From positions 143,656 to 207,655 of the forward strand of contig JACRFK010000003.1 of assembly GCA_016217925.1 (NCBI GenBank): a stretch of DNA of 64,000 nt. The letters run 5' to 3'. The stretch comes from Candidatus Kaiserbacteria bacterium (GTDB taxonomy: Bacteria > Patescibacteriota > Minisyncoccia > Phycocordibacterales > UBA2100). Made by a program: the position numbers and the translations under genes. Below the pieces are notes generated by a model that was given only the letters and a program-made list of their open reading frames with translations, did not search any database and had not been told where the DNA came from. Shown here piece after piece: positions 1,577-56,821 of this stretch (the stretch's first letter is position 1; each line of letters starts with the position of its first letter).

Positions 1577-1657
1577 CCCCGTTAGAGGCTCCGGACGCTG
1601 TGTGTATCTGGAACTATCGAACCCACGAGGTCTTTTCAGAGGCTGCCTCTAACGGGG
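1577..1657. repeat. Palindromic element, GTTAGAGG family: CCCCGTTAGAGGC, 55 nt, GCCTCTAACGGGG
   Basis: Exact 13-nt inverted arms at 1577-1589 and 1645-1657. The same arms recur at 14007-14035, and related arms at 15075-15105 and 52342-52425. Confidence 0.7.
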
Positions 1658-2860: not shown

Positions 2861-5800
2861 AGTCCGCAAGGTGCTGCTGTTGGGTTCGGGGGGCCTTCGC
2901 ATCGGTCAGGCGGGTGAGTTTGATTACTCCGGCTCGCAGGCTATCAAGGCGCTCAAAGAGGAGGGTGTCAAAGTCGTACTGATGAATCCGAATATCGCAA
3001 CGGTGCAGACGGATGATAAGCTCGCGGACACCGTGTACTTTCTCCCCCTCACAGAACACTTCGCAACGCAGGTGATAAAGAAAGAAAAGCCCGATGCCAT
3101 ATTGCTCTCCTTCGGCGGGCAGACGGCTCTCAATCTCGGACTCTCGCTCGAAGAGCGCGGAGTCTTGAAAAAGTACAGCGTACGCGTACTCGGCACATCG
3201 GTCGCCACTATCCGCGACACCGAGGACCGCGAGCTATTTGTGCGACGTCTTTCGGAAATCGGTGTAAAGACCGCGCAAAGTCGGGCGACAGAAAATGTAC
3301 GAGACGCACTGAAAGCCGCGGGCGAGATAGGCTACCCGGTAATGATGCGTTCGGGCTTTGCACTCGGCGGTGAAGGGTCGGGAGTCGTTCACAACGAGAA
3401 GGAATTATCTGTGAAGCTAACGGAGGTGTTCAGGAACGTACCGCAGGTTCTCATCGAGGAAAACCTGAGCGGCTGGAAAGAGGTCGAATACGAAGTGGTG
3501 CGCGACCGCGCCGACAACTGCATCACGGTGTGCAATATGGAAAATCTCGATCCGATGGGCATTCATACAGGCGAGAGCATCGTCGTCGCGCCGTCGCAGA
3601 CGCTATCGAATGCCGAGTATCACGGACTTCGCGAGATAGCGATTAAAACGATACGCCACTTGGGAATTGTCGGAGAATGCAACATCCAGTATGCCCTTCA
3701 TCCGCAGACAGGTGACTACCGCGTCATCGAGGTGAACGCCCGCCTCTCGCGCTCTTCCGCGCTCGCATCGAAAGCCACAGGATATCCGCTCGCCTTCGTG
3801 GCCGCCAAGCTCGCGCTCGGATACAAGCTCACCGATATCAAGAATTCAGTCACTGGCAAAACGACTGCCTGCTTCGAGCCCGCACTCGATTACCTCGTCC
3901 TCAAAGCCCCACGCTGGGACCTGACAAAATTCGAGAACGCGGCACCTCGCATCGGTACCGAAATGAAAAGCGTCGGAGAGGTCATGGCCATTGGCCGCTC
4001 TTTCGAAGAAGTGCTGCAAAAAGCGCTTCGCATGCTCAACGTCGGCGTAGACGGATTCGTGCCCGCAAAAAACCCTTGTCCGAAAACCCGGTATTTGGAC
4101 GAAATACAGTACCCGACGACTCGTCGCATCTTTGCGCTCGCGGAAGCGCTGCACGACGGCGTCAATGTGGCCAAGCTGCACGACCTATCCAAAATTGACC
4201 CGTGGTTTCTGGAAAAGATGGGCAATATCGTCGGACTGGAACGTGAACTTAAGAGAAAGAAGTTGACCAAAGAGCTACTCGCACGCGCAAAACGCGCGGG
4301 ATTCTCCGATAAGCGCATTGGAACGTTGAAGAAAACGACTGAAGTGGCCGTCCGCTCTCTCCGCGCGCGCTTGCACGTGTTACCCGTCGTCAAACAGATA
4401 GACACACTTGCGGGTGAATTCCCCGCACAGACCAATTACCTGTACATGACCTACCACGGCACCGAAAACGATGTTGCGCGCGGAAAAAATCAGGTTGCCG
4501 TTTTGGGAAGCGGCCCGTATTGCATCGGCTCATCAGTCGAATTCGATTGGTCCTGCGTACAGGCGCTCAAAACTTTGAAGGCGGAAGGGCGCAACACCAT
4601 CATGATCAATTCCAACCCCGAGACCGTTTCGACCGATTACGACATGTCCGACCGGCTGTATTTCGAGGAACTTTCGCTTGAGCGCGTACTCGACATTGTC
4701 GATTTTGAGCGACCTCTCGGCGTCGTTATCTCAACCGGCGGCCAGATACCCAACAATCTCGCACTTCCGCTGCAGCGCAACAAGGTCAGAATTCTCGGCA
4801 CGGACCCGCAAAATATCAACCGTGCCGAAGACCGTCACGTATTCTCCAAATTGCTCGACGAGCTCGGTATTGACCAGCCCGAGTGGGCGGAACTCACCAC
4901 TCCCGCAGCAGCGGCGAAAGCGGCCGAGAAACTCGGCTACCCGGTCCTCGTGCGTCCCTCATACGTCCTCTCGGGTGCCGCGATGAAGGTGGCCTATGAT
5001 GAGAAATCTTTGCTTGAATTCCTTCAGCGCGCCGTTGACGTATCGTCCGACCACCCCGTTGTGATTTCAAAATTCATCGAGAACGCGCGCGAGATAGAAA
5101 TAGACGGCGTGGCACACAAGGGCGCGCTCGCAATCTACGCCATTACCGAACACATCGAAAATGCCGGCACGCACTCGGGCGACGCCACCGTGGTATTGCC
5201 GCCCCAGCGCACCTACCTCGAGACCATCCGGCGCGCCAAGCACATCACGAAGGATATTTTGAAGGCGCTGAAGATTACCGGCCCCTTCAATATGCAATTC
5301 ATCGCCAAAGACAATCACCTGCTTGTCATCGAGTGTAATCTGCGCGCCTCGCGCAGTTTCCCGTTCGTCTCAAAAGTGACGGGACACAATTTCATCAACC
5401 TCGCGGTACGCGCCATGCTAGGCAAAGATATCGCCGGCCACTATCGGACCGTCGAGCTTGATACCGTCGCCGTGAAATCGCCGCAATTTTCCTACGGCCG
5501 CATCAAGGGGGCCGACCCGCACACGAGCGTGGAGATGGCCTCGACTGGCGAAGTGGCGTGTTTCGGCGATTCCTATTCCGAGGCACTTCTCAAATCTATG
5601 ATGGCCGCGGGTTTCCGTTTGCCGAAGAAGAACGTACTTGTATCTCTCGGCAAAGAGGAGAATAAGATCAAGATGCTGCCGGCTGTAGCCGTGCTCGCCA
5701 ATATGGGATTCAAGCTCTACGCGACCGAGCACACGGCGGATTTTCTGCGCGAGAACAACATCCCGTGCGAGAAAGTCTATAAGATAAGTTCAAATATTGC

Positions 5801-7542: not shown

Positions 7543-10287
7543 TTATTTAATCATCCTTTTCTTCAATGTGCGTTTCAAGTAGTATCCCGTATGCGAGCCG
7601 TCGGTCTTTGAGACTTCTTCGGGTGTGCCCTTTGCTACGATTTTTCCGCCTCCTGCTCCCCCTTCGGGCCCCATGTCGATGATGTAATCGGCGCATTTCA
7701 AGACGTCGAGATTGTGCTCGATAGCTATCACGGTATTGCCGCGTTCGACAAGCTTCTGGAGAATATCTACAAGCTTTGCGACGTCGTCATAGTGGAGTCC
7801 GACCGTCGGCTCGTCGAGCAGGTAGACGCTTTTTGTAATGAGCGGACGGTAGAGCTCGGACGCGATTTTCACGCGCTGCGCTTCTCCGCCGGAGAGCGTC
7901 GTCGCACTTTGACCGAGTTCCAGATATCCGAGCCCGACGTCAATAAGGCTTTGCATTCTATCGGATACCGCAGGTATATCTTCGAAAAACGCGTACGCTT
8001 CCTCGACGGTCATGGAGAGCACATCGTGAATACTCTTTTTCTTGTACTTCACTTCGAGCGTCTCCTTCATAAAGCGCTTCCCGTTGCACACATCGCAGGT
8101 CACGTACACGGTCGGCAAAAAGTGCATCTCGACTGCGACAAGCCCATTGCCTTGGCATGCCTCGCACCGTCCGCCTTTCACGTTGAAAGAGAAGCGCCCG
8201 GGCCCCCAACCGCGCGCCCGCGCCTCTTCGCTCATGGCAAACATGTCGCGGATATGTGTCCACGCCCCCGTGTAGGTCGCTGGATTGCTGCGCGGGGTGC
8301 GGCCGATTGCGGATTGGTCTATCAAAATCGCCCGCCCGAGGTACTCGGTGCCCGAGAATTCTTTTGCGTTGTAGATTTTGGCGGTGCGATATCGTTTGTC
8401 GAAACGCGCCTGCAAATTGCGGTGAAGGATTTCGTAGAGAAATGTAGACTTTCCCGAGCCGGAAACACCCGAAACAACGACAAACTTTCCGAGCGGTACA
8501 TCCACGTTGAGATTTTCGATATTGAACTTCCCCGCGCCGCGTATTTTGATCTTGCCTCGGTCGGCGGTACGTCGCGTTTCGGGAATCTCAATCCTTATTT
8601 CATCCCTCAAATATTGCAACGTCCGTGAGACGTGCGCGCCTGCCCCGTAGGAAGCTTTGCTTTCCTTCGGGGAGCCGGATTTGTTGGTTTTAGCGGTGAG
8701 CAAGTCTTCAAGCCACCCATCCACAACCACTTCCCCGCCGTGTACGCCCGCACCGGGGCCGAGGTCAACGATGTAATCCGAAGCAAAAATGGTGTCTTCG
8801 TCGTGTTCAACGACGAGAACGGTGTTGCCGAGGTCGCGTAAGTGTTTCAACGTCTCGATGAGCTTGTCGTTGTCGCGCTGATGCAAGCCGATTGTCGGCT
8901 CGTCGAGCACATAGAGCGCGCCCACAAGCCCCGAGCCGAGCTGTGAGGCAAGCCGGATGCGTTGCGCCTCACCGCCCGACAAGGTATTCGCCTTTCTATC
9001 CAGCGTCAGGTATTCGATGCCCACATTGAGCATGAACTGCAGGCGCGAAGTTATCTCCTTGATGACAACGCGGGAAATGTCTTGTTCTTTTTTCGTGAGT
9101 TTCAGTTTGTTGAAAAAGTCCATCGCATCTTCGATTGAAAGGGACGAGAGATGTACGATGTTCATGCCCGTGGCCGGACCGTCGTTACTCTCCGGTTGCT
9201 TCACGTGTCCGAGAAATACATTTAGTGTTTCCGGTCGAAGACGCGCGCCCTCACAGACGTCGCATGCCTCATCGCCAAAGAAATATTTCGTCCCCAACCC
9301 TTTGCACTCCGGGCACGCGCCGTAGGGTGAGTTGAAGGAGAAGAGGCGCGGTTCAATTTCAGGAAATGAAAAGCTGTCGTACGGACACATGAATTTGGCC
9401 GAGACGATACGGGACTCCCCCGCCGCGTCGGTAATTTTTACCAATCCTTCGCTCTCGTGCAGCGCGCGCTCGATAGCCTCCGATGCGCGCTCATGCGCGG
9501 CTTTGGCGTCGTCCGCAAATTCAGAGACGAATATTTCGTCAACGACAATATCAATGTCGTGCTTGAAATGCTTCTTGAGGTCGACGCGCTCGCGGAGTGA
9601 CTTTTCCTCACCGTCTATAACGGCCTTCTCGTACCCTTTGTTGAGCATGTCGTAAAGGAGCTGGTAGTATTCTCCTTTCCGACCAACTACCACGGGAGAC
9701 GATATCCGTATCTTCGCTCCTGAAACTCCCGCTGTCAGCTTTCCTTTTCCCCGAGAACCGACCTCTGTGCTTTTCCCCGAGGTCGGTTCTCTGTGCTTTC
9801 GAGCCGCTTCGACGATGGAAAGCACCGATTCCAGTATCTCTTCGTTGGAAAGTTTGCGGACCTCACGGCCGCAAATCGTGCAGTGCGGCTTGCCCACACG
9901 CGCGTACAGCACGCGGAGGTAGTCGTAAATCTCGGTGATGGTCGCGACCGTCGAGCGCGGGTTGTTGGAGCGGGATTTTTGGTCTATTGAAATTGCGGGT
10001 GAAAGTCCCGTTATCTCGTCCACATCGGGCTTTTGCATTTGGCGTAAAAACTGCCTTGCGTATGCGGAAAGCGATTCCACGTACTTGCGCTGGCCCTCGG
10101 CAAAAATGGTATCAAAAGCAAGCGAAGACTTCCCGCTTCCGGAAAGCCCCGTGAAAACGACCATCTTGTTGCGTGGTATCTCAACACTGATGTTCTTCAG
10201 GTTGTGTGTCCGCGCCCCTTTGATGACGATTTTACCTGCCCCGACCGTAGCGTCGGGGTCTGAACCTTGTCTTCTTGAATTTGGCAT
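7543..10287 (-). CDS. uvrA: Excinuclease ABC subunit A
   Basis: Two ABC ATPase modules with zinc-finger insertions and conserved UvrA blocks throughout. The listed ORF extends to 10473, but the conserved N-terminus begins at MPNSRRQG...[15 protein letters not shown], so the start is probably near 10287. Confidence 0.9.
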
Positions 10288-10400
10288 ATATAGTTCCGAC
10301 CCCCGCTTTGCGCTAGGGGTTAGTATGGGGGATTGTATCAGAAACAGGAAGGGACCGCGATGTGCGGCCCCACTCCACTTTTCATTCTCCGACGCGGCGA

Positions 10401-10763
10401 TCATTCCGGCGTGGACAGCGCAAGCTTGTGCCACGGGATGACGTGACTTCTTCCACGCAGGAAGACGATGCATCCTTCCTCGCCTTCGTGATAGTTGCGC
10501 CGGCGATGTTCGTAGTCCTCCCGGTCGGGCACCCTCCCGACGAGAGCGGCCGGAAAATTTTCGTGCATGTACAGCAGATAGACTTTCTCGCCGTACGGCG
10601 GTCCATCCGAGCCCGTAAGGGCACGGGGGTCCGAAGGCGGGGGCGTAAATCGATAGTCGGCCGCACTGCGATTCCTTGCTGCACGACGACCGCGACCCGA
10701 ACGTCCGGCATCCGCATAGAAGTTACCCAAACCTGTCGATCTTCTCATGACACAACCCTCCAA
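10401..10763 (-). CDS. Hypothetical small protein, about 120 aa, Arg-rich N-terminus
   Basis: GGAGGG sits 7 nt upstream of the ATG at 10763. It lies downstream of the terminator of the 335-aa gene. An extended -10 TGaTACAAT for uvrA lies beyond it. Sequence is GC-rich and shows no recognisable domain. Confidence 0.35.
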
Positions 10764-10827
10764 GTCGCTCCATGCGACTGAACCGTAAGCACCCTACAAT
10801 AAGATGAACTCCCCGTAAAGGGAGTAG

Positions 10828-10873
10828 TAAATTGAAAACGAAACGGCGGCGGACCCCACGAGGGTCCACCGCC
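10828..10873 (-). terminator. Intrinsic terminator after the 335-aa gene
   Basis: GC-rich hairpin ggcggtggaccc / gggtccgccgcc, followed on the minus strand by GTTTCGTTTTC. Confidence 0.45.
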
Positions 10874-10932
10874 AGTTGCCAGTTGATTGAAGATCAGTTT
10901 TTTGTAGCTCCCGCAAGATGGGGCGACCCCAT

Positions 10933-11940
10933 TCACAGGTCGCGCTCCCTTGCCTTAGGATTTTGCGTAACACCGCCGGAGTGTCCAATGGTGCCAAGAC
11001 GCTCATAGTCGAGAGTGTCAAGATCCACGGGAACAAACACTCCATACTTGTCGATGAACGCATCGATCAGCTGCAAGGCTTGGGTGCAGCTTGCCGTCAT
11101 CCTGTAAATCTGGAAATTGCGGGCCTCCAGATCGGCGGCATCGCCGACGAAGATGATTTGCTTCATCGGCACGAGCGGCCATTGCAACCGCCGCCACCAG
11201 GACATGAATTTCCCGCGGAATCCTTTGGGAATTTCATTCTTGGATAGAGATGCCTTTTCAGGGGCTAAAGGCCATTGCAACTGGCGTCGCCAATGGAACT
11301 TCAGCCCCACGTCGGTTCCGTTCGGCCCGCCCTGCTTCACATGAAGCCGGGCGAACCCTGCGTAGTAGATCTTGTCGTTCAGGCCAGCAGCAACAACTGC
11401 ATGTCGCATCTGCGGGTAGACGAGCAAGGCAAAGTCGCTGAACCGATTTCTCAAGACGAAATCCTCAGCGAAGATTTGAGCCCTGAAAGTCGCGGCAAGT
11501 TTCCCAGGACCCGCCGCCCACTCGATGATGCGACAAAGCATTTCGGCATCTTCGACGCGATATTCGTCGCCTTGCACCGCGGTGACACTGGCTGGTTTTC
11601 GACCCATCCAGTGCCGGAAGCTAACGCGGTAGTCGACCGACTCCTTGGCGGGACTTGTGAGCAAACACCTCCAAATATAAAGAATCTGGGATGTGAAGTG
11701 TCTGAAGAAGTCGTCGCCGGTGAAGTCGGGGGTTGCGCGAAGTCGGATGGCCTGCGAAAGGCGGTCCCGAATTGCCGTCGCCGTGATACGTTGGATCGCA
11801 ACTTTGGCGACATATTCGGGGCCGGTTAAACAAGCCGGTGTTGACGACGTTTCGTAGAACTTTGCTTGGATGGCTTCAGCGAAACCGGACGACGAAGTGA
11901 TTGGCCCTTTCGCCAGATCCCTCATTAGGTTTTGAATCAT
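10933..11940 (-). CDS. Hypothetical protein, 335 aa, with an internal tandem duplication (possible R-x4-H motif, unverified)
   Basis: No recognisable family. The protein repeat WRRQLQWPLAPEK... / WRRLQWPLVPMK is encoded by a 93-nt tandem duplication at 11177-11310. It has its own consensus promoter and terminator. Confidence 0.6.
   Translation of the reverse strand: MIQNLMRDLAKGPITSSSGFAEAIQAKFYETSSTPACLTGPEYVAKVAIQRITATAIRDRLSQAIRLRATPDFTGDDFFRHFTSQILYIWRCLLTSPAKESVDYRVSFRHWMGRKPASVTAVQGDEYRVEDAEMLCRIIEWAAGPGKLAATFRAQIFAEDFVLRNRFSDFALLVYPQMRHAVVAAGLNDKIYYAGFARLHVKQGGPNGTDVGLKFHWRRQLQWPLAPEKASLSKNEIPKGFRGKFMSWWRRLQWPLVPMKQIIFVGDAADLEARNFQIYRMTASCTQALQLIDAFIDKYGVFVPVDLDTLDYERLGTIGHSGGVTQNPKARERDL
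11177..11310. repeat. 93-nt intragenic tandem duplication, 1.4 copies
   Basis: ggccattgcaaccgccgccaccagg... is repeated as ggccattgcaactggcgtcgccaatgg... Confidence 0.6.
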
Positions 11941-12987: not shown

Positions 12988-15051
12988 TTATTTCTTCTTT
13001 CTGTTTTTCTCCTCCAGCTTCTGTATTTCATCACGAATAAGCGCGGCTGTCTCGAAATCAAGTTTGTCAGCCGCTTCGTGCATCTGATTGCGCTTGTCTT
13101 TTATGAGCTTCCTGATGTCCCCTCCGTATGCAGCTTTATCCATCTCCGCAAGCTCGCTCACCGCGCGCTTGCGGCTTCGCTCGATGTCGCCAACGATGTC
13201 GTGAATGCGTTTCTCTATCGTCTTCGGCGTGATGTGATGTTTTTTGTTGTACGCCTCCTGTATCGCACGCCGCCTGTTGGTCTCGCCTATCGCACGCCCC
13301 AAGGAGCCCGTCATCAGATCGGCGTAAAGAATGACGCGGCCCCTGACGTTCCTCGCCGCGCGACCGATAGTCTGGATGAGCGAAGTGTCACTGCGCAAAA
13401 ATCCCTCTTTATCAGCGTCTAGAATTGCGACCAGTTCGACTTCCGGCAGGTCCAAGCCTTCACGCAACAAGTTCACGCCGACGAGCACGTCGAAGGTTCC
13501 TTTGCGGAAATCGGTAAGGATTTCGATGCGGTCAATAGTTTTCACATCACTGTGCACGTAGCGTGCTTTTATTTTCTTCTCGACGAGGAACTGCGTGAGG
13601 TCTTCCGCCATCTTTTTGGTCAGCACCGTCACCATGGAGCGCGCACCGCTTTTCGTCACCGCTTCGGCTTCTGCAATAAAATCTTTGACCTGCCCTTCAT
13701 AATCCGTGCCACTTACGATGGGGCGGACGACAATTTGCGGATCGACGAGGCCCGTCGGGCGGATCACCTGGGAAATCGGCTCGCCGCTGTGTTCGAGCTC
13801 AAATTTGCCCGGAGTCGCCGAGGTGTAGATGGTTTGTCCTGTGCGCTCCTGAAATTCAGCAAAGTTGAGCGGACGGTTGTCGACGGCACTCGGAAGCCGG
13901 AAACCGTGTTCGACGAGCGTATCCTTGCGCGCCCGATCTCCCGCATACATACCACCGATCTGCGAGACGGTCACGTGCGATTCGTCAATGACGGTGAGGA
14001 AACCTGCCCCGTTAGAGGCGATGCCTCTAACGGGGTCCGGAAATAACTTTGCACAGGCGTGAAAGTAATCAATCAAGGTATACGGCGGCTCCCCGGGCTT
14101 TCGCCTGTCGAAATGACGCGAGTAGTTCTCGATACCGTTGCAAAATCCGAATTCGCGTATCATCCCTATGTCCTGGCGCGTGCGACGTTTGAGACGCTCA
14201 GCTTCAAGGATTTTCCCTTCGCCGTTGAATTTCTTAAGTTGTTCCGCAAGTTCAATTTCAATATCCGCAAGCGCCGCCTCCAACACATCTTTGGGGGTTA
14301 CGTACTGACGTGCGGGAAAAATAAACATTGCATCGTGCTTCGCACCCAGTTTGCGCGTCATCGCGTCCACTTCCTCGATTTTCGCGATTTTTCCGCCCGT
14401 GAGGTCGACGCGGTAGATGACGCGTTCGCTCGCGGGCATGATCTCAACGGTAGCGCCAAGCGCACGAAATGTCCCCGGCGAAAGCTCGCCCGCGGTGCGC
14501 TCGAAATAGATAGAGACGAGTTTGCGCGACAGGTGGCTGCGCGTCATCTGTTCGCCCTTCGTCAGTTTGAGATTTACTTTTTGATATTCGATAGGGCTGC
14601 CTAAACCGTAGATGCAGGAGACGGATGCGACGACGATGACGTCCTTGCGCGTGAGGAGGGCCTGTGTCGCTGCGTGCCGCAGGCGTTCGATGTCTTCATT
14701 TATCATCGCTTCCTTCTCGATATACGTATCAGTAACCGGCATGTACGCTTCCGGCTGGTAGTAATCGTAGTAGGAGACGAAATAATGCACCGCGGCGTCG
14801 GGAAAGAAATCGCGGTACTCGGCGGCGAGCTGCGCCGCGAGTGTTTTGTTGTGCGCGATGACGAGCGTCGGTCTCTGCACTTTTTCAACGACATTGGCAA
14901 TGGTGAAGGTCTTGCCGGAACCTGTAACCCCCAAAAGCGTCTGGTCACGTGTACCCGTTTTCAGACTTTTTACGAGCGCAGAAATAGCCTCCGGCTGATC
15001 GCCGCCAGGCCGATAGTCGCTTTTTAGCTTGAATACGCCGCCTGATTTCAT
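12988..15051 (-). CDS. uvrB: Excinuclease ABC subunit B
   Basis: Helicase motifs (GVTGSGKTFT, DESHVT) and a C-terminal UvrB/UvrC interaction coil. Start is taken as ATG MKSGGVF at 15049-15051. The stop of the upstream uORF overlaps this ATG. Confidence 0.9.
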   Translation of the reverse strand: MKSGGVFKLKSDYRPGGDQPEAISALVKSLKTGTRDQTLLGVTGSGKTFTIANVVEKVQRPTLVIAHNKTLAAQLAAEYRDFFPDAAVHYFVSYYDYYQPEAYMPVTDTYIEKEAMINEDIERLRHAATQALLTRKDVIVVASVSCIYGLGSPIEYQKVNLKLTKGEQMTRSHLSRKLVSIYFERTAGELSPGTFRALGATVEIMPASERVIYRVDLTGGKIAKIEEVDAMTRKLGAKHDAMFIFPARQYVTPKDVLEAALADIEIELAEQLKKFNGEGKILEAERLKRRTRQDIGMIREFGFCNGIENYSRHFDRRKPGEPPYTLIDYFHACAKLFPDPVRGIASNGAGFLTVIDESHVTVSQIGGMYAGDRARKDTLVEHGFRLPSAVDNRPLNFAEFQERTGQTIYTSATPGKFELEHSGEPISQVIRPTGLVDPQIVVRPIVSGTDYEGQVKDFIAEAEAVTKSGARSMVTVLTKKMAEDLTQFLVEKKIKARYVHSDVKTIDRIEILTDFRKGTFDVLVGVNLLREGLDLPEVELVAILDADKEGFLRSDTSLIQTIGRAARNVRGRVILYADLMTGSLGRAIGETNRRRAIQEAYNKKHHITPKTIEKRIHDIVGDIERSRKRAVSELAEMDKAAYGGDIRKLIKDKRNQMHEAADKLDFETAALIRDEIQKLEEKNRKKK
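14007..14035. repeat. Perfect 29-nt palindrome CCCCGTTAGAGGC-GAT-GCCTCTAACGGGG inside the uvrB coding sequence
   Basis: It encodes DPVRGIASNG in frame. It lies within a roughly 17-aa insertion relative to E. coli UvrB (recalled from memory), between the conserved LIDY and VIDESH blocks. Confidence 0.7.
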
Positions 15052-15149
15052 ACACAACAATGAAATGAGTCCCGCCCCGTAGGAAGCTGCGCTTTCCTAC
15101 CGGGGTCGCCGGCGGGCTTGTAGGCCGCCTTCAGTTTGAACTTACTCAT
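15048..15149 (-). CDS. uORF or leader peptide, 33 aa, MSKFKLKAAYKPAGDPGRKAQLPTGRDSFHCCV, coupled to uvrB
   Basis: The N-terminus mimics the UvrB N-terminus FKLKSDYRPGGDQ. The TGA stop overlaps the uvrB ATG as ATGA. It contains the palindrome at 15075-15105. Confidence 0.5.
   Translation of the reverse strand: MSKFKLKAAYKPAGDPGRKAQLPTGRDSFHCCV
15075..15105. repeat. Palindrome CCCCGTAGGAAGC-TGCGC-TTTCCTACCGGGG, a diverged member of the GTTAGAGG family
   Basis: Inverted arms lie within the uvrB leader uORF. Confidence 0.5.
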
Positions 15150-15174
15150 CGGGACACTGTACAGGATTGGGCCC

Positions 15175-19417: not shown

Positions 19418-20875
19418 CTATTGCTTAGGCCGCATAAGCGGGAATATCTGCGCTTCGTGGGCGGGGCGGTTCTCGAGGAACGAAAAGAGGCGCTCGGAGA
19501 CGCCGAAGCCGAAAGCCGGCGGCATGCCGTGTTCCATCGCACGAATGTACTCTTCATCGAGCCGTTGCGCTTCATCATCGCCGGCGTCGCGCAGTGCCTG
19601 CTGCTCTTCGAATCGCGCCCGCTGGTCTAGTGGATCGTTCAATTCGCTGTATCCATTGCCCACTTCACTCCCCGCAATGATTATCTGAACGCGGTCCGCT
19701 TTCTCAGGGTCTTTTACCATCTGTTTTGCAAGTGGCGAAAGATAGACGGGCACGCCTCTCAAAAATGCCGGGCCGGCGATTCCTTTACGTATCTTCTTCC
19801 ACAGATGGTCTATCGCGCGTGCTTTATTGGGTGATTGGCCGAAGGTAACGCCCACGTTCTTCGCGGCCTCTATTGCCTCGTCCTCGGTGCATGAAATGGC
19901 GTCAATACCGAATTCCTTTTGAATCGCGGTACAAAAATCTATCTCCGGCCATTCCTCGGCAAAATCGACAGTGTGCTCGCCTATCTCGAAGGTATAGCGT
20001 CCGTATGTTTCTTTGACGATGTGGCGGTATAACTCCTGTAAAAACTTCATTCCCAATCTCGCATCAGCGAAAGCCTCGTAGCTCTCAAGCTGGGTGTAAT
20101 CTTGCAAATGCTCCCGCGATTGTCCCTCATTGCGGAATACCCGCCCTATTTCGAAGACTTTCGGGAAGCCCGCTATGAGCAATTCCTTTTGCCACAGCTC
20201 CCCTGCGCAAATCCGCATGTACACGTCAATATCGAGTGCGTGGTGGTGGGTTTTGAAGGGCCGAGCATCAGCGCCACCGGGAGTCGTCTCGAGCACGGGT
20301 GTTTCTACTTCGAGGAAGCCCCGCGAAAGATAGAAATCGCGCGCCGACTGCCAGAATTTCGCGCGTCGAATGAACATCTTGCGCACCTCCTCATTGAGCA
20401 ATATATCGAGGTACCGCTGCCGTAAGATGAGCTCTTCATCTTTGAGACCAAAATGCTCTGTAGGTATCGGTAGCAAGGATTTCGCGAGCATTCGCCATTT
20501 CTGCACCTTCAGCGAACGTTCTCCGCGTTTTGTCTTGAACATCGTTCCGGAGGCTTCGATAAAATCACCGGCGTCCACGGTCATCGCGAAGAGGTCGAAT
20601 ACCTTTTCATCAATATCCGCCTTTTGCAGTACGAGCTGCATGCGACCGGTACCATCAAAAATATCGGCGAACATGATGCCGCCCTGTCCTCGCAGTGACA
20701 TAACGCGTCCTCCCAGGTGGACTTTGTGCGTACTTTTTTCTAGCTCGTCAAATTGAGCGATGAGATCGGCGTTGCTTGTGTCGCGGTGTGAATCCGAGGG
20801 GTACGCTTCCATCTCGGCCGCTTTCAGGATGTCGAGTTTTTTCAGCCGCTCGGCACGGATATCTTGCTCGCTCAT
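19418..20875 (-). CDS. lysS: Lysine--tRNA ligase, class II
   Basis: OB-fold anticodon-binding domain plus class II motifs (FRNEGQSREH..., GGADARPF). The start MSEQDIRAE at 20875 overlaps the uORF stop as ATGA. Confidence 0.9.
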   Translation of the reverse strand: MSEQDIRAERLKKLDILKAAEMEAYPSDSHRDTSNADLIAQFDELEKSTHKVHLGGRVMSLRGQGGIMFADIFDGTGRMQLVLQKADIDEKVFDLFAMTVDAGDFIEASGTMFKTKRGERSLKVQKWRMLAKSLLPIPTEHFGLKDEELILRQRYLDILLNEEVRKMFIRRAKFWQSARDFYLSRGFLEVETPVLETTPGGADARPFKTHHHALDIDVYMRICAGELWQKELLIAGFPKVFEIGRVFRNEGQSREHLQDYTQLESYEAFADARLGMKFLQELYRHIVKETYGRYTFEIGEHTVDFAEEWPEIDFCTAIQKEFGIDAISCTEDEAIEAAKNVGVTFGQSPNKARAIDHLWKKIRKGIAGPAFLRGVPVYLSPLAKQMVKDPEKADRVQIIIAGSEVGNGYSELNDPLDQRARFEEQQALRDAGDDEAQRLDEEYIRAMEHGMPPAFGFGVSERLFSFLENRPAHEAQIFPLMRPKQ

Positions 20876-20976
20876 CCCGCTATTTCTATATGAATAAAGG
20901 AGATATGTAAGCAAAGTTCACCGCAGTCCATATTGGTGCAAGCGAGAAGTAATCGTTCTGAAAGGGCGGGACTCAT
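20872..20976 (-). promoter_or_regulatory. Inverted-repeat leader module with 34-aa uORF MSPALSERLLLACTNMDCGELCLHISFIHIEIAG, copy A
   Basis: Arms are catcccgctatttctata at 20873-20890 and gaaagggcgggactcat at 20960-20976. The uORF TGA overlaps the lysS ATG. Copies B and C are at 31864-31959 and 43339-43404. Confidence 0.55.
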
Positions 20977-44702: not shown

Positions 44703-44817
44703 ATAATAGAGGGGTCAGGATACCCCATGAGATAGGGCCGAAAACGACGTTGCAACTTCTCACCCTTCGTCATCTCACGGGGTAAACCTGATTGTATCGC
44801 ACCTCCCGCGGGTGCGA

Positions 44818-46607: not shown

Positions 46608-46637
46608 GAAGCACAGAGAACCGACCTATGTGCTTTT
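46608..46637. repeat. Hairpin repeat (REP-like bidirectional terminator), copy 1, inverted orientation
   Basis: gaagcacaGAGAACCGACCTAtgtgctttt. Stem aaaagcaca/tgtgctttt with a 13-nt loop. Lies between the convergent oxidoreductase and collagen-like genes. Confidence 0.6.
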
Positions 46638-47484: not shown

Positions 47485-47515
47485 AAAAGCACATAGGTCG
47501 GTTCTCTGTGCTTTT
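47485..47515. repeat. Hairpin repeat, copy 2
   Basis: aaaagcacaTAGGTCGGTTCTCtgtgctttt. Lies between the PKD gene stop and the collagen-like gene start. Confidence 0.6.
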
Positions 47516-48306: not shown

Positions 48307-48383
48307 GAATGAAATGACGCTAAGGTAATATGAAAATGCTAACACCAGTTTCCCAATTGTCTATGACGTTCGGTGTTGTTCGA

Positions 48384-48413
48384 AAAAGCACATAGGTCGG
48401 TTCTCTGTGTTTT
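48384..48413. repeat. Hairpin repeat, copy 3, with a slightly degenerate 3' arm
   Basis: aaaagcacaTAGGTCGGTTCTCtgtgtttt. Overlaps the obg stop codon. Confidence 0.55.
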
Positions 48414-52279: not shown

Positions 52280-52341
52280 GTAGTGGTAGTCTACTACTTC
52301 AGCAATATATGAATACCGACGAAGCCGAATTCCCCATGCGT

Positions 52342-52425
52342 CCCGTTAGAAATCGCGGACGACTCGTAAAACATCCCACTAGGCAGAGCCCAGGGATTCC
52401 GGTTCCGCGTCCTATTTCTAACGGG
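52342..52425. repeat. Palindromic element, GTTAGA family: CCCGTTAGAAATCGCGGA, about 45 nt, TCCGCGTCCTATTTCTAACGGG
   Basis: Roughly 20-nt inverted arms. The right arm ends exactly at the rluB ATG at 52426. It has the same architecture as the element at 1577-1657. Confidence 0.6.
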
Positions 52426-53103
52426 ATGCGGATAAATAAGTACCTCGCGCGAGAGAAGTACTGCACGCGGCGCGAGGCGGATGAGTTCATCAAAAAAGGG
52501 CTCGTTTCTATCAATGGCCGCCCGGCGGTCCTCGGTGACAAAGTGAAAAAGGACGACAAGGTCGAGGTGAAATGGCGGCAGACCAAACACCGGTACTTCG
52601 CATACAACAAGCCGCGCGGCATTATTACGCACTCGGCACAGGAGGGAGAAGAGGAGATCAAAGAGATATTGCCGGTAGAAGGCGTATTCCCCGTCGGACG
52701 CCTCGACAAGGATTCGTACGGACTCATTATTCTCACAGACGACGGCCGCATCACCGACGCACTTCTCAATCCCGAACGTGCCCATGAAAAAGAATACGAG
52801 GTAAGGACCACAGATGCATTGCCCGCGAATTTCAAGGCGAAAATGGAAAAAGGCGTCGACATCGGCGGCTATGTGACGAAGCCGTGCAAAGTCGAGATTC
52901 TCGGCGACCGCAAGTTTGCCATCACACTTACGGAGGGCAAGAAGCACCAAATACGCCGCATGTGCGGATTTTTCGGCGCGAGCACATCCAATCTGGAGAG
53001 GAAACGCATTATGAACATCACGCTCGGCGGCCTGAAGCCCGGCGAGTATCGGACGATACAGGGCGCGGAATTGGAAACGTTTATGAAGAGTCTCGGGTTC
53101 TAG
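52426..53103 (+). CDS. RluB/RsuA-family pseudouridine synthase
   Basis: S4 domain MRINKYLAREKYCTRREADEFIKKGLVSINGR, followed by a catalytic domain with the conserved Asp region. The listed ORF extends in frame to 52309 through the palindromic element. Confidence 0.8.
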   Translation: MRINKYLAREKYCTRREADEFIKKGLVSINGRPAVLGDKVKKDDKVEVKWRQTKHRYFAYNKPRGIITHSAQEGEEEIKEILPVEGVFPVGRLDKDSYGLIILTDDGRITDALLNPERAHEKEYEVRTTDALPANFKAKMEKGVDIGGYVTKPCKVEILGDRKFAITLTEGKKHQIRRMCGFFGASTSNLERKRIMNITLGGLKPGEYRTIQGAELETFMKSLGF

Positions 53104-56698: not shown

Positions 56699-56795
56699 AA
56701 AAATAGCAAAACTGTTAAAAGGTTGCTAATGCACTAAGCCTACCCCCGCAGCGTTTCCTGTCCAGCGCCCCCCGTCGCACAAAAATCATTCTAAC

Positions 56796-56821
56796 GTTTT
56801 GCAAAACGTTAGAACGTTGTG
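56796..56821. promoter_or_regulatory. Perfect 26-nt palindrome TTCTAACGTTTTGCAAAACGTTAGAA, a candidate operator
   Basis: Exact dyad symmetry. The half-site contains CGTTAGAA, which recurs in the GTTAGA palindromic family. It lies about 100 nt upstream of the 56698 gene start. Confidence 0.4.

Follow-up and report, generated by a model that had tools for sequence, protein, structure and literature searches.

We describe here a family of very small palindromic elements found in a 64,000-nucleotide stretch of a Candidatus Kaiserbacteria genome (assembly GCA_016217925.1, contig JACRFK010000003.1, positions 143,656 to 207,655; G+C content ~ 55%), which we refer to as the window, as well as in metagenomic and viral contigs. 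Each element carries two 13-bp ends that pair into a hairpin, and we consider it likely that the family represents a non-autonomous DNA transposon, that is, a miniature inverted-repeat transposable element (MITE). The empty sites present in relatives prove insertion, and the inserted copies are commonly flanked by a 4-bp target-site duplication. Apparently, this is a real and previously unreported family of tiny mobile hairpin elements of the Candidate Phyla Radiation (CPR)/Patescibacteria and of their phages. An earlier note on the same DNA had proposed a dispersed palindromic family resembling Rickettsia palindromic elements (RPEs) or MITEs; this proposal was borne out by its frequency, by its polymorphism among relatives and by its folding.

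Copies in the window

The window holds three intact copies of the element and up to three decayed ones:

1573-1576, left target-site duplication of copy 1, TTGA, read from the sequence
1577-1657, intact copy 1, 81 bp, between the divergent uvrC and the carA leader promoter
1658-1661, right target-site duplication of copy 1, TTGA, the first bases of the carA -35 box
14007-14035, intact minimal copy 2, 29 bp (13-bp stem, 3-nt loop), in frame within uvrB (minus strand)
15075-15105, doubtful degenerate family-like hairpin, with the functional uvrB start on one side and a vestigial duplicate of the 5' end of uvrB on the other
20876-20970, decayed copy, minus strand, at the start codon of an aminoacyl-tRNA synthetase (aaRS) gene (ATG at 20875)
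44723-44782, probable decayed or variant copy, CCCATGAGATAG ... TCATCTCACGGG, intergenic, ~ 20 nt upstream of a major facilitator superfamily transporter gene
52337-52340, left target-site duplication of copy 3, TGCG, from the alignment with empty-site relatives
52341-52426, intact copy 3, 86 bp, in frame within rluB (plus strand)
52427-52430, right target-site duplication of copy 3, TGCG, from the same alignment

As the earlier note had described, copy 1 has exact 13-nt arms, CCCCGTTAGAGGC/GCCTCTAACGGGG, at 1577-1589/1645-1657 around a 55-nt spacer, and the same arms occur again at 14007-14019/14023-14035 with a 3-nt spacer. The terminal pair of copy 1 is C1577/G1657, its inner triplet is GGC/GCC, and its interior is the 55-nt spacer. 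The related copy noted at 52342-52425 (CCCGTTAGAAAT/ATTTCTAACGGG) does exist, although its 12-nt arms are separated by 60 nt rather than by the ~ 45 nt originally given; its terminal pair is T52341/A52426 and its inner triplet AAT/ATT. In the probable variant at 44723-44782, core position 6 is altered on both arms. The hairpin at 15075-15105, which had been counted as a fourth copy, is only weakly family-like, with the core CCCCGTAGGAAG, imperfect arms and a fold z-score of -0.95, while each of the three intact copies has a much stronger fold than its shuffled counterparts, at z from -4.5 to -6.3.

Within the window, CCCGTTAGA(9-69 nt)TCTAACGGG as a paired pattern matched six times, once on each strand at three sites, whereas 100 shuffles gave 0.00, so that the copies far exceed chance, and no match was obtained in ~ 1.4 Mb of unrelated bacterial loci (generic UvrB loci) that served as a negative control. 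Further copies were provided by a metagenome scan with the paired pattern, which returned at least 120 stretches; the family figures given below are those among the matches listed. Together with the window and two Kaiserbacteria loci, the listed stretches make up a set of at least 121-129 non-redundant copies.

Structure of the element

The consensus across the non-redundant copies is 5'-Y-CCCGTTAGA-NNN ... N'N'N'-TCTAACGGG-R-3', in which the 13-bp stem comprises nine invariant bases, three variable complementary bases and a Y/R closing pair. The family thus possesses 13-bp terminal inverted repeats (YCCCGTTAGANNN) that pair in nearly all copies; the arm is almost always exactly 12 nt long, with the closing pair as an addition. 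CCCGTTAGA is present in 150 of the 152 perfect family hairpins of the loci, which makes the first nine nucleotides invariant. Positions 10, 11 and 12 of the stem, the inner triplet, are paired in 97%, 88% and 81% of the copies with three to four pair types each, and 18 different versions of the triplet occur, whereas positions 13-16 pair in ~ 20% of the copies, the level expected by chance. Flanking the arms are Y (left) and R (right), and these two bases (-1/+1) are complementary in 91% of the copies. Both the covarying inner triplet and the 4-bp duplication were found in the present analysis and had been absent from the earlier note.

The interior, 3-116 nt long, shows no family-wide conservation, and the size of the element is 24-134 bp when measured between the core ends, or ~ 27-140 bp overall. 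Other genes repeatedly contain minimal forms of the same type as the uvrB copy, 27-29 bp in length with a 12-13-bp stem and a 3-nt loop. A subfamily with a 59-nt form occupies five sites with differing flanks on four contigs, and a 38-nt internal-deletion derivative of it was found at four further sites on three contigs; the same small, non-coding, multi-copy element is therefore present at no fewer than nine unrelated sites (at least nine for the 59- and 38-nt forms together). The CGGA/CGCGGA boxes beside the arms, which had been put forward as a shared architecture, are indeed present in window copies 1 and 3 and in a locus of a Kaiserbacteria relative (L001), where they mark a local subfamily, but they are not a feature of the family as a whole.

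Target-site duplication and empty sites

A perfect 4-bp direct repeat flanks 74 of the 121 copies, while shuffling of the partners gives 10.5 +/- 2.9. The repeat lies in the register -5..-2 = +2..+5, with 72-84% identity, and other registers remain at background. Because 72 of the 74 perfect-repeat copies have a complementary -1/+1 pair and 15 of them fit no 5-bp model, the Y/R pair belongs to the element and the duplication is 4 bp long. The target consensus is palindromic, R|TNNA|Y, with the central 4 bp duplicated; the perfect repeats are TTTA/TAAA in 30 copies, TGAA/TTCA in 20, TTGA/TCAA in 10, CNNG in a few and TTAA in one. This fixed-length duplication is also seen directly at rluB, where TGCG can be compared with the empty sites.

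An important question is whether the copies are polymorphic among relatives, as expected of inserted DNA. Empty sites were found in relatives at rluB, at uvrB, at the carA -35 box and at the aaRS start. The rluB DNA of two relatives (L204 and L206, 90% and 84% protein identity) reads GAATTCCCC|ATGCGGATAAAT, and the window differs by a clean +90 bp, consisting of the 86-bp element and the TGCG duplication: A-TGCG-[T CCCG...CGGG A]-TGCG-G. At carA, the homologous promoter of another locus (L002) lacks the element, with TTGAC-N-TATACT and the leader conserved there. The aaRS start displays three states, being intact in L001 (ATGAGT|...|ATGAGC), decayed in the window and empty in L203. The window copy keeps the CCCG...CGGG ends and the ATGAGT/ATGAGC duplication, its arms are mutated, and its upstream ATG opens a 33-codon frame whose TGA overlaps the real ATG.

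Insertions within genes

Long open frames contain 28 of the 121 copies, and in 27 of these 28 the length is divisible by three. Ten host frames were tested and all proved to be real genes, including those for GyrA (gyrA), IF-2 (infB), RtcB (rtcB), a LipA/LplA fusion and ComEC; in-frame palindromic insertion in unrelated genes, as in RPEs, is thus found in GyrA, IF-2, RtcB, UvrB and RluB. The similarity of the peptides translated from different copies, to which the earlier note had drawn attention, was confirmed for PVR..SNG (16 copies), and a second open frame, x-PLE/D..LTG, is used by 12 copies; the two counts together include the L001 uvrB copy. The third frame, which contains TAG, is never used among the coding copies. 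The likeness of the peptides is explained by this structure, because only two frames of the palindrome are stop-free. RNA splicing or excision of the intragenic copies was considered and ruled out, since nearly all of them are in frame and stop-free.

The copy in rluB had been thought to end exactly at the start codon. Instead, it is an in-frame insertion after codon 11: the orthologues begin MNTDKAEFPMRINKYLA, the true start is the ATG at 52309, and the real rluB gene spans 52309-53103 (plus strand), with 30 residues added by copy 3. The UvrB protein of the window, encoded at 12991-15051 (minus strand), is 100% identical to one that NCBI assigns to Candidatus Kaiserbacteria. In uvrB (12988-15051, minus strand), copy 2 encodes PVRGIASNG in a variable loop just ahead of helicase motif II (DESH). 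The closest UvrB homologues (P0002 and P0003, 90-91% identity) read YFPKDFLTV, YFPKDFLTVIDESH, and the window reads YFHACAKLFPDPVRGIASNGAGFLTVIDESH. The uvrB hairpin is common to three lineages, represented by the window, L001 and L002.

Several observations on uvrB and on other genes stand beside these results. The codons flanking the hairpin differ at one position in 42 nt between the window (13990-14080) and L001 (10970-11060), against ~ 50% codon identity gene-wide at conserved residues; judged from these sequences, the near-identical flanks suggest a recombination patch that may have moved the insertion between lineages. The segment at 15050-15151 (minus strand), earlier described as a uvrB leader upstream open reading frame (ORF), duplicates the 5' end of uvrB in vestigial form and encodes MSKFKLKAAYKPAGD, which matches the N-termini of L203 and L001 UvrB; the degenerate hairpin comes next, and after it a second, functional N-terminus, MKSGGVFKLKSDYRPGGDQ. 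The stop of the vestigial frame overlaps the real uvrB start (ATGA), and the duplication extends over ~ 45 nt around the hairpin.

Three copies (L104 8182-8253, L160 2373-2492 and L192 4020-4085) lie exactly at the G|FTLIE cleavage motif of type IV prepilin genes, with a TTTA duplication and the reading ...LTG-FTLIEL; the inserted peptide therefore lies within the leader that is cut off by the prepilin peptidase. These prepilin sites were examined as a source of the common GTTTAC flank and rejected, as only 3 of the 121 copies fit.

Insertions at start codons and promoters

The elements had been supposed to be tolerated at expression signals, and the counts agree with this: 24 of the 121 copies (20%) adjoin the start codon of a long ORF, and -10 boxes are enriched behind TTGA-type flanks. 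At the start codons, the closing R and the duplicated TG-- rebuild ATG or GTG, as in the MurG gene of L143, whose product begins M-NPVR...SNGV-KILFTGGGTGGH. The upstream ATG is kept in 19 start-codon copies, and in 15 of these 19 its frame is open through the interior to the right arm, giving an in-frame fusion, a GGA-TGA stop that overlaps the real ATG, or a TAA in the right arm. Open frames were found in 13 of 17 start-codon copies compared with 58 of 127 other copies (p = 0.02).

A -10 box follows at 16-18 bp after 9 of the 42 TT[GT]A[CT] flanks, compared with 6.6% for the same motif in controls. Copy 1 belongs to this group. As had been noted, it abuts the carA -35 box: the right TTGA begins the hexamer TTGACT (1658-1663), which a spacer of 16 nt separates from the -10 box TATACT (1680-1685). 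In the Kaiserbacteria loci studied here, promoters lie ~ 7 nt from the ATG (uvrB, uvrC and aaRS), and the mRNAs are therefore probably leaderless; insertions at leaderless gene starts should be nearly neutral.

The carA promoter itself is near-consensus, and the promoter and the leader start are conserved in L002. Behind it lies a 32-codon leader ORF with its ATG at 1695, ~ 9 nt past the -10 box, and a TGA that overlaps the carA ATG (1790); the leader region (1658-1793) holds a terminator-like hairpin with a T-run at 1760-1783. From its sequence, it resembles a leader that controls carAB by attenuation or coupling.

Distribution among hosts and phages

The element-bearing loci span 30-62% G+C. 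One of them, L143 (35% G+C), encodes a CTP synthase whose best named relatives are found in Nealsonbacteria, Parcubacteria and Patescibacteria, and 16 named CPR control loci from other lineages contained no copies. Because copies occur in the Kaiserbacteria and L143 loci and these 16 CPR loci are empty, the family is present in at least two Parcubacteria lineages and is not universal in the CPR.

The scan of viral contigs gave ~ 15 genuine copies, with about three quarters of the matches being unrelated 10-bp-stem terminator-like hairpins at roughly chance frequency. At least five genuine copies lie in a contig of a Mu-like transposable phage (L215, L250 and L268; IMGVR_UViG_3300038429_000794), which carries genes for a MuA-like transposase, a MuB-like AAA protein, Mu F and a capsid protein. 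In another phage contig (L244, with portal and capsid genes), the copies are placed exactly at the start codons of the portal gene and of one other gene. Shared copies could serve as a marker that links CPR phages to their Patescibacteria hosts.

Proposed mechanism and alternative explanations

These data raise a key question: how could an element of this size be moved? Duplications of fixed length and variable sequence at a palindromic target argue for a dimeric DDE transposase with staggered cuts; HUH/Y1 enzymes and tyrosine and serine recombinases leave no such duplication. The element inserts at R|TNNA|Y sites with duplication of the central 4 bp; in the mechanism that we propose, a DDE transposase acting in trans would make the 4-bp staggered cut. 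At 27-140 bp, the elements lack the length needed for looping, and their ends would probably be joined by hairpin or cruciform extrusion, and each stem would mimic a duplex end, with arm complementarity needed over the protein footprint. Such cruciform synapsis would explain why positions 10-12 change only in pairs and why pairing stops sharply after position 12; template-switch correction of quasi-palindromes may be an alternative origin of the paired changes. The copies that survive are found at harmless positions: within N-terminal or surface regions of proteins, in frame by means of the two stop-free frames; between codons 1 and 2 of genes; or inside -35 hexamers, where the duplicated TTGA preserves the promoter.

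As for the source of the transposase, the IS1380/piggyBac lineage is the best-fitting lead, an analogy suggested by the 4-bp duplication at T..A sites, the CC(C) ends and the 13-bp repeat. A 4-bp (or 4-5-bp) duplication is among the traits given for IS1380 in the ISfinder family table, and such a duplication together with CC(C) ends is what the copies display. The piggyBac transposon has a 4-bp TTAA duplication and CCCTT-type ends, and IS1380 is its prokaryotic relative (PMC10813416). A tblastn search with the ISEcp1 transposase, followed by a profile match, revealed a full-length IS1380-family transposase gene (NF033539, 295.7 bits) at 10033-11355 (minus strand) of L167, a locus with a family copy at 5689-5754. 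No matching inverted repeats that could be the ends of this IS1380 element were found in the locus, which stops 156 nt upstream of the ATG of the gene. On the other side, 196 nt beyond the stop codon of the gene, there is a sequence that begins with CCCG, CCCGATATAGAAAAAA. The IS1380 relatives found in viral contigs were ISEcp1-like elements without informative ends.

Several points weigh against the interpretation as a MITE moved by such an enzyme. Neither the covariation of the stem nor its sharp 12/13-bp boundary is predicted by the standard two-end MITE model, and classical DDE transposases need no complementary ends. Searches of ~ 0.9 Mb of element-bearing loci, which covered arms spaced by 150-8000 bp, orphan arms, generic inverted repeats spaced by 600-3500 bp and ORF clusters that recur across loci, revealed no autonomous element bounded by CCCGTTAGA, and no transposase adjoins any copy in those loci. 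The IS1380 gene of L167 lies 4.3 kb from the copy and represents a single co-occurrence in a tblastn search of ~ 1.46 Mb. Targeting, and not survivorship alone, could account for the excess of copies at start codons and -35 boxes. Finally, the uvrB copy retains no duplication, and all 12 codons of its hairpin (12 of 12) are the same in the window and in L002, compared with 43% gene-wide at conserved residues (0.43^12, ~ 4e-5), while the L001 hairpin carries a compensatory, symmetric G>C/C>G change that leaves the palindrome perfect. This conservation points to a constraint on the uvrB hairpin beyond selfish persistence, for which selection, gene conversion and self-correction fit the data alike.

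Among the other explanations, recurrence of a G+C-rich palindrome by chance, or the presence of ordinary terminator hairpins, is extremely improbable and, for the window copies, refuted: many of the viral matches are indeed 10-bp stems followed by T-runs and without duplication, but the window has six matches with 0.00 expected, the metagenome matches combine 12-bp arms with duplications, and relatives have empty sites. We regard integron attC-like or tyrosine-recombinase sites as very improbable as well. The arms contain GTTRRR and YYYAAC and thus resemble the attC core (GTTRRRY/RYYYAAC), conservation is stronger for the structure than for the sequence of the interior, and the length of the variable interior differs among copies. 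However, the published polarity of attC is R''(RYYYAAC)...R'(GTTRRRY), i.e., AAC...GTT, and the order here is mirrored (GTT...AAC, in full GTTAGA...TCTAAC); moreover, the flanking repeats vary in sequence and hence provide no fixed crossover core, and the copies are single and inside genes, with neither cassette arrays nor an integrase beside them.

A hairpin that is moved as a single strand by an HUH/Y1 enzyme and is cut and rejoined beside a short target such as TTAC, in the manner of IS200/IS605 or of repetitive extragenic palindromic (REP) sequences and REPINs with their REP-associated tyrosine transposases (RAYTs), would account for the covarying stem and its sharp boundary, for the many TTTAC or TTGAC flanks and for the nucleotide conservation and compensatory change of the uvrB hairpin, and a Y1_Tnp gene (PF01797) is present in L001. 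We nevertheless judge it distinctly unlikely, since the duplications vary by copy (TTTA, TGAA, TTGA, CGAG and TGCG) where HUH transposition leaves none, and the target consensus is palindromic, as expected of a staggered-cutting dimer. In addition, the L001 Y1 gene is bracketed by a different hairpin, AAATATGGACACG, tblastn with its product found no Y1 gene in the window, and there is no GTAG-type 5' box.

It is also unlikely that the element is a host-selected structure, such as a DNA or RNA hairpin bound by a Patescibacteria protein or a coupling or regulatory module at leaderless starts, which was spread once by transposition and has been kept for its function. The 9-nt core that is invariant across loci of 30-62% G+C, the identity of all 12 uvrB hairpin codons over a background of 0.43, the 20% of copies placed exactly at start codons with frames open to a stop/start overlap, and the gene-start copies in phages speak for it. 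On the other hand, the copies are polymorphic and decaying (the window aaRS copy has lost its arms, with the gene intact), the interiors are not conserved, either orientation occurs in coding regions, promoters and elsewhere, and the 16 CPR control loci are empty. Rfam gave no match at gathering score across the window except tRNA-Gln, and none even at E <= 1 on copies 1 and 3.

Beyond the MITE interpretation, a more speculative reading, which we hold to be rather doubtful, is an undescribed mode of transposition in Patescibacteria and their phages. In it, a 13-bp stem, as a hairpin or a cruciform, would act as the substrate in place of two separate ends and would be inserted by a staggered cut of 4 bp. 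Leaderless genes would be targeted at their start codons and -35 boxes, so that the copies there would be more than mere survivors; a part of the copies would later have been co-opted, for example as ATGA-coupled upstream frames, as GyrA, IF-2, UvrB and RluB peptides, or as the uvrB hairpin that is constant at synonymous sites.

Other hairpins in the window and in L001

A second small repeat, AAGCACAGAGAACCGACCTATGTGCTTTT (7-bp stem, 13-nt loop), occurs in the window at 46609-46637, 47485-47513 (minus strand), 48381-48409 (minus strand) and 9752-9791, and GAGAACCGACCT has five exact occurrences, one pair of which forms the palindrome at 9752-9791. The AAGCACAGAGAACCGACCTATGTGCTTTT repeat may represent a further family of hairpin repeats, or else a terminator that the sites have in common. 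At 56788-56814, a perfect 26-bp palindrome, TTCTAACGTTTTG|CAAAACGTTAGAA, lies in an intergenic region between C-rich and G-rich runs. It was rejected as a member of the family, having TCTAACG/CGTTAGA in the opposite order and no CCC/GGG ends, and it may be an operator. In L001, the Y1 gene (IS200-like, PF01797; 6252-6962) is situated between its own hairpins, AAATATGGACACG/CGTGTCCATATTT, which are unrelated to the CCCGTTAGA family; by its sequence, the arrangement resembles that of a RAYT with REPs, here in a Kaiserbacteria relative.

Significance and comparison with known systems

We found nothing on this element in the searchable literature and no paper on such repeats in Patescibacteria; looking there for the strings CCCGTTAGA and TCTAACGGG brought up nothing but primers. 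Patescibacteria are not mentioned in a 2024 review of prokaryotic MITEs (PMC10969869). The family places selfish DNA inside essential genes of the tiny CPR genomes (gyrA, infB, uvrB, rluB and rtcB), a phenomenon best known from Rickettsia, and adds to this RPE-like behavior a clear insertion signature in the form of the 4-bp duplication. It also matters for annotation: gene callers mis-set starts, as in rluB, which was placed after the element, and insertions of 30 residues mimic lineage-specific protein features. Moreover, the functional-looking 27-bp forms, together with the strictness of the 13-bp stem and the covariation of its triplet, offer a handle on the synapsis of very short transposons.

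To our knowledge, no regular target-site duplication has been reported for RPEs. Like the elements described here, RPEs are small palindromic repeats of reduced genomes that lie in frame inside unrelated housekeeping genes and also in intergenic regions. They are ~ 150 bp long, occur in frame in many housekeeping genes and add a peptide without destroying the protein (PMC10969869). RPEs of ~ 100-150 bp form about ten families with conserved interiors and a conserved peptide, whereas here only the 13-bp stem is conserved in elements of 27 to ~ 140 bp, which show a 4-bp duplication, use two reading frames and have Patescibacteria and phages as hosts. RPEs are the nearest known system in behavior, and the relation to them is best described as an analogy of behavior and not as membership.

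With REP/REPIN-RAYT systems, the family shares short and abundant hairpin repeats whose structure is kept by paired changes, as would be an arrangement with a single-copy enzyme acting in trans. However, REPs are extragenic, have a GTAG-type box and make no duplication, while the present copies are often intragenic and have 4-bp duplications; for this reason, and because the L001 Y1 gene is bracketed by a different hairpin, membership in this group was rejected. Membership among integron attC sites was likewise rejected on the mirrored polarity and the lack of arrays and integrase described above.

The piggyBac/IS1380 group resembles the family in its 4-bp duplication at a palindromic T..A target and in a 13-bp terminal repeat starting with CCC. 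The piggyBac ends, CCCTAGAAAG, can be matched to CCCGTTAGAAAT only with a 2-nt offset, and this similarity may be a coincidence. The family differs from this group in that TTAA is rare (1 of 74 copies) and that no autonomous copy with these ends was found in the ~ 0.9 Mb searched.

By its terminal repeats, its duplication, its multiple copies and its polymorphism, the family qualifies as a MITE. It resembles bacterial MITEs such as the Neisseria Correia elements, ERIC, RUP and Nezha, which are non-autonomous and multi-copy, have terminal inverted repeats, a target-site duplication and internal-deletion variants, often lie beside promoters and gene starts and fold into RNA hairpins. In comparison with them, the elements described here have far shorter ends, a minimal form of 27-29 bp and a covarying inner triplet, and the core is kept not within a single genus but across very different base compositions in at least two named Parcubacteria lineages.

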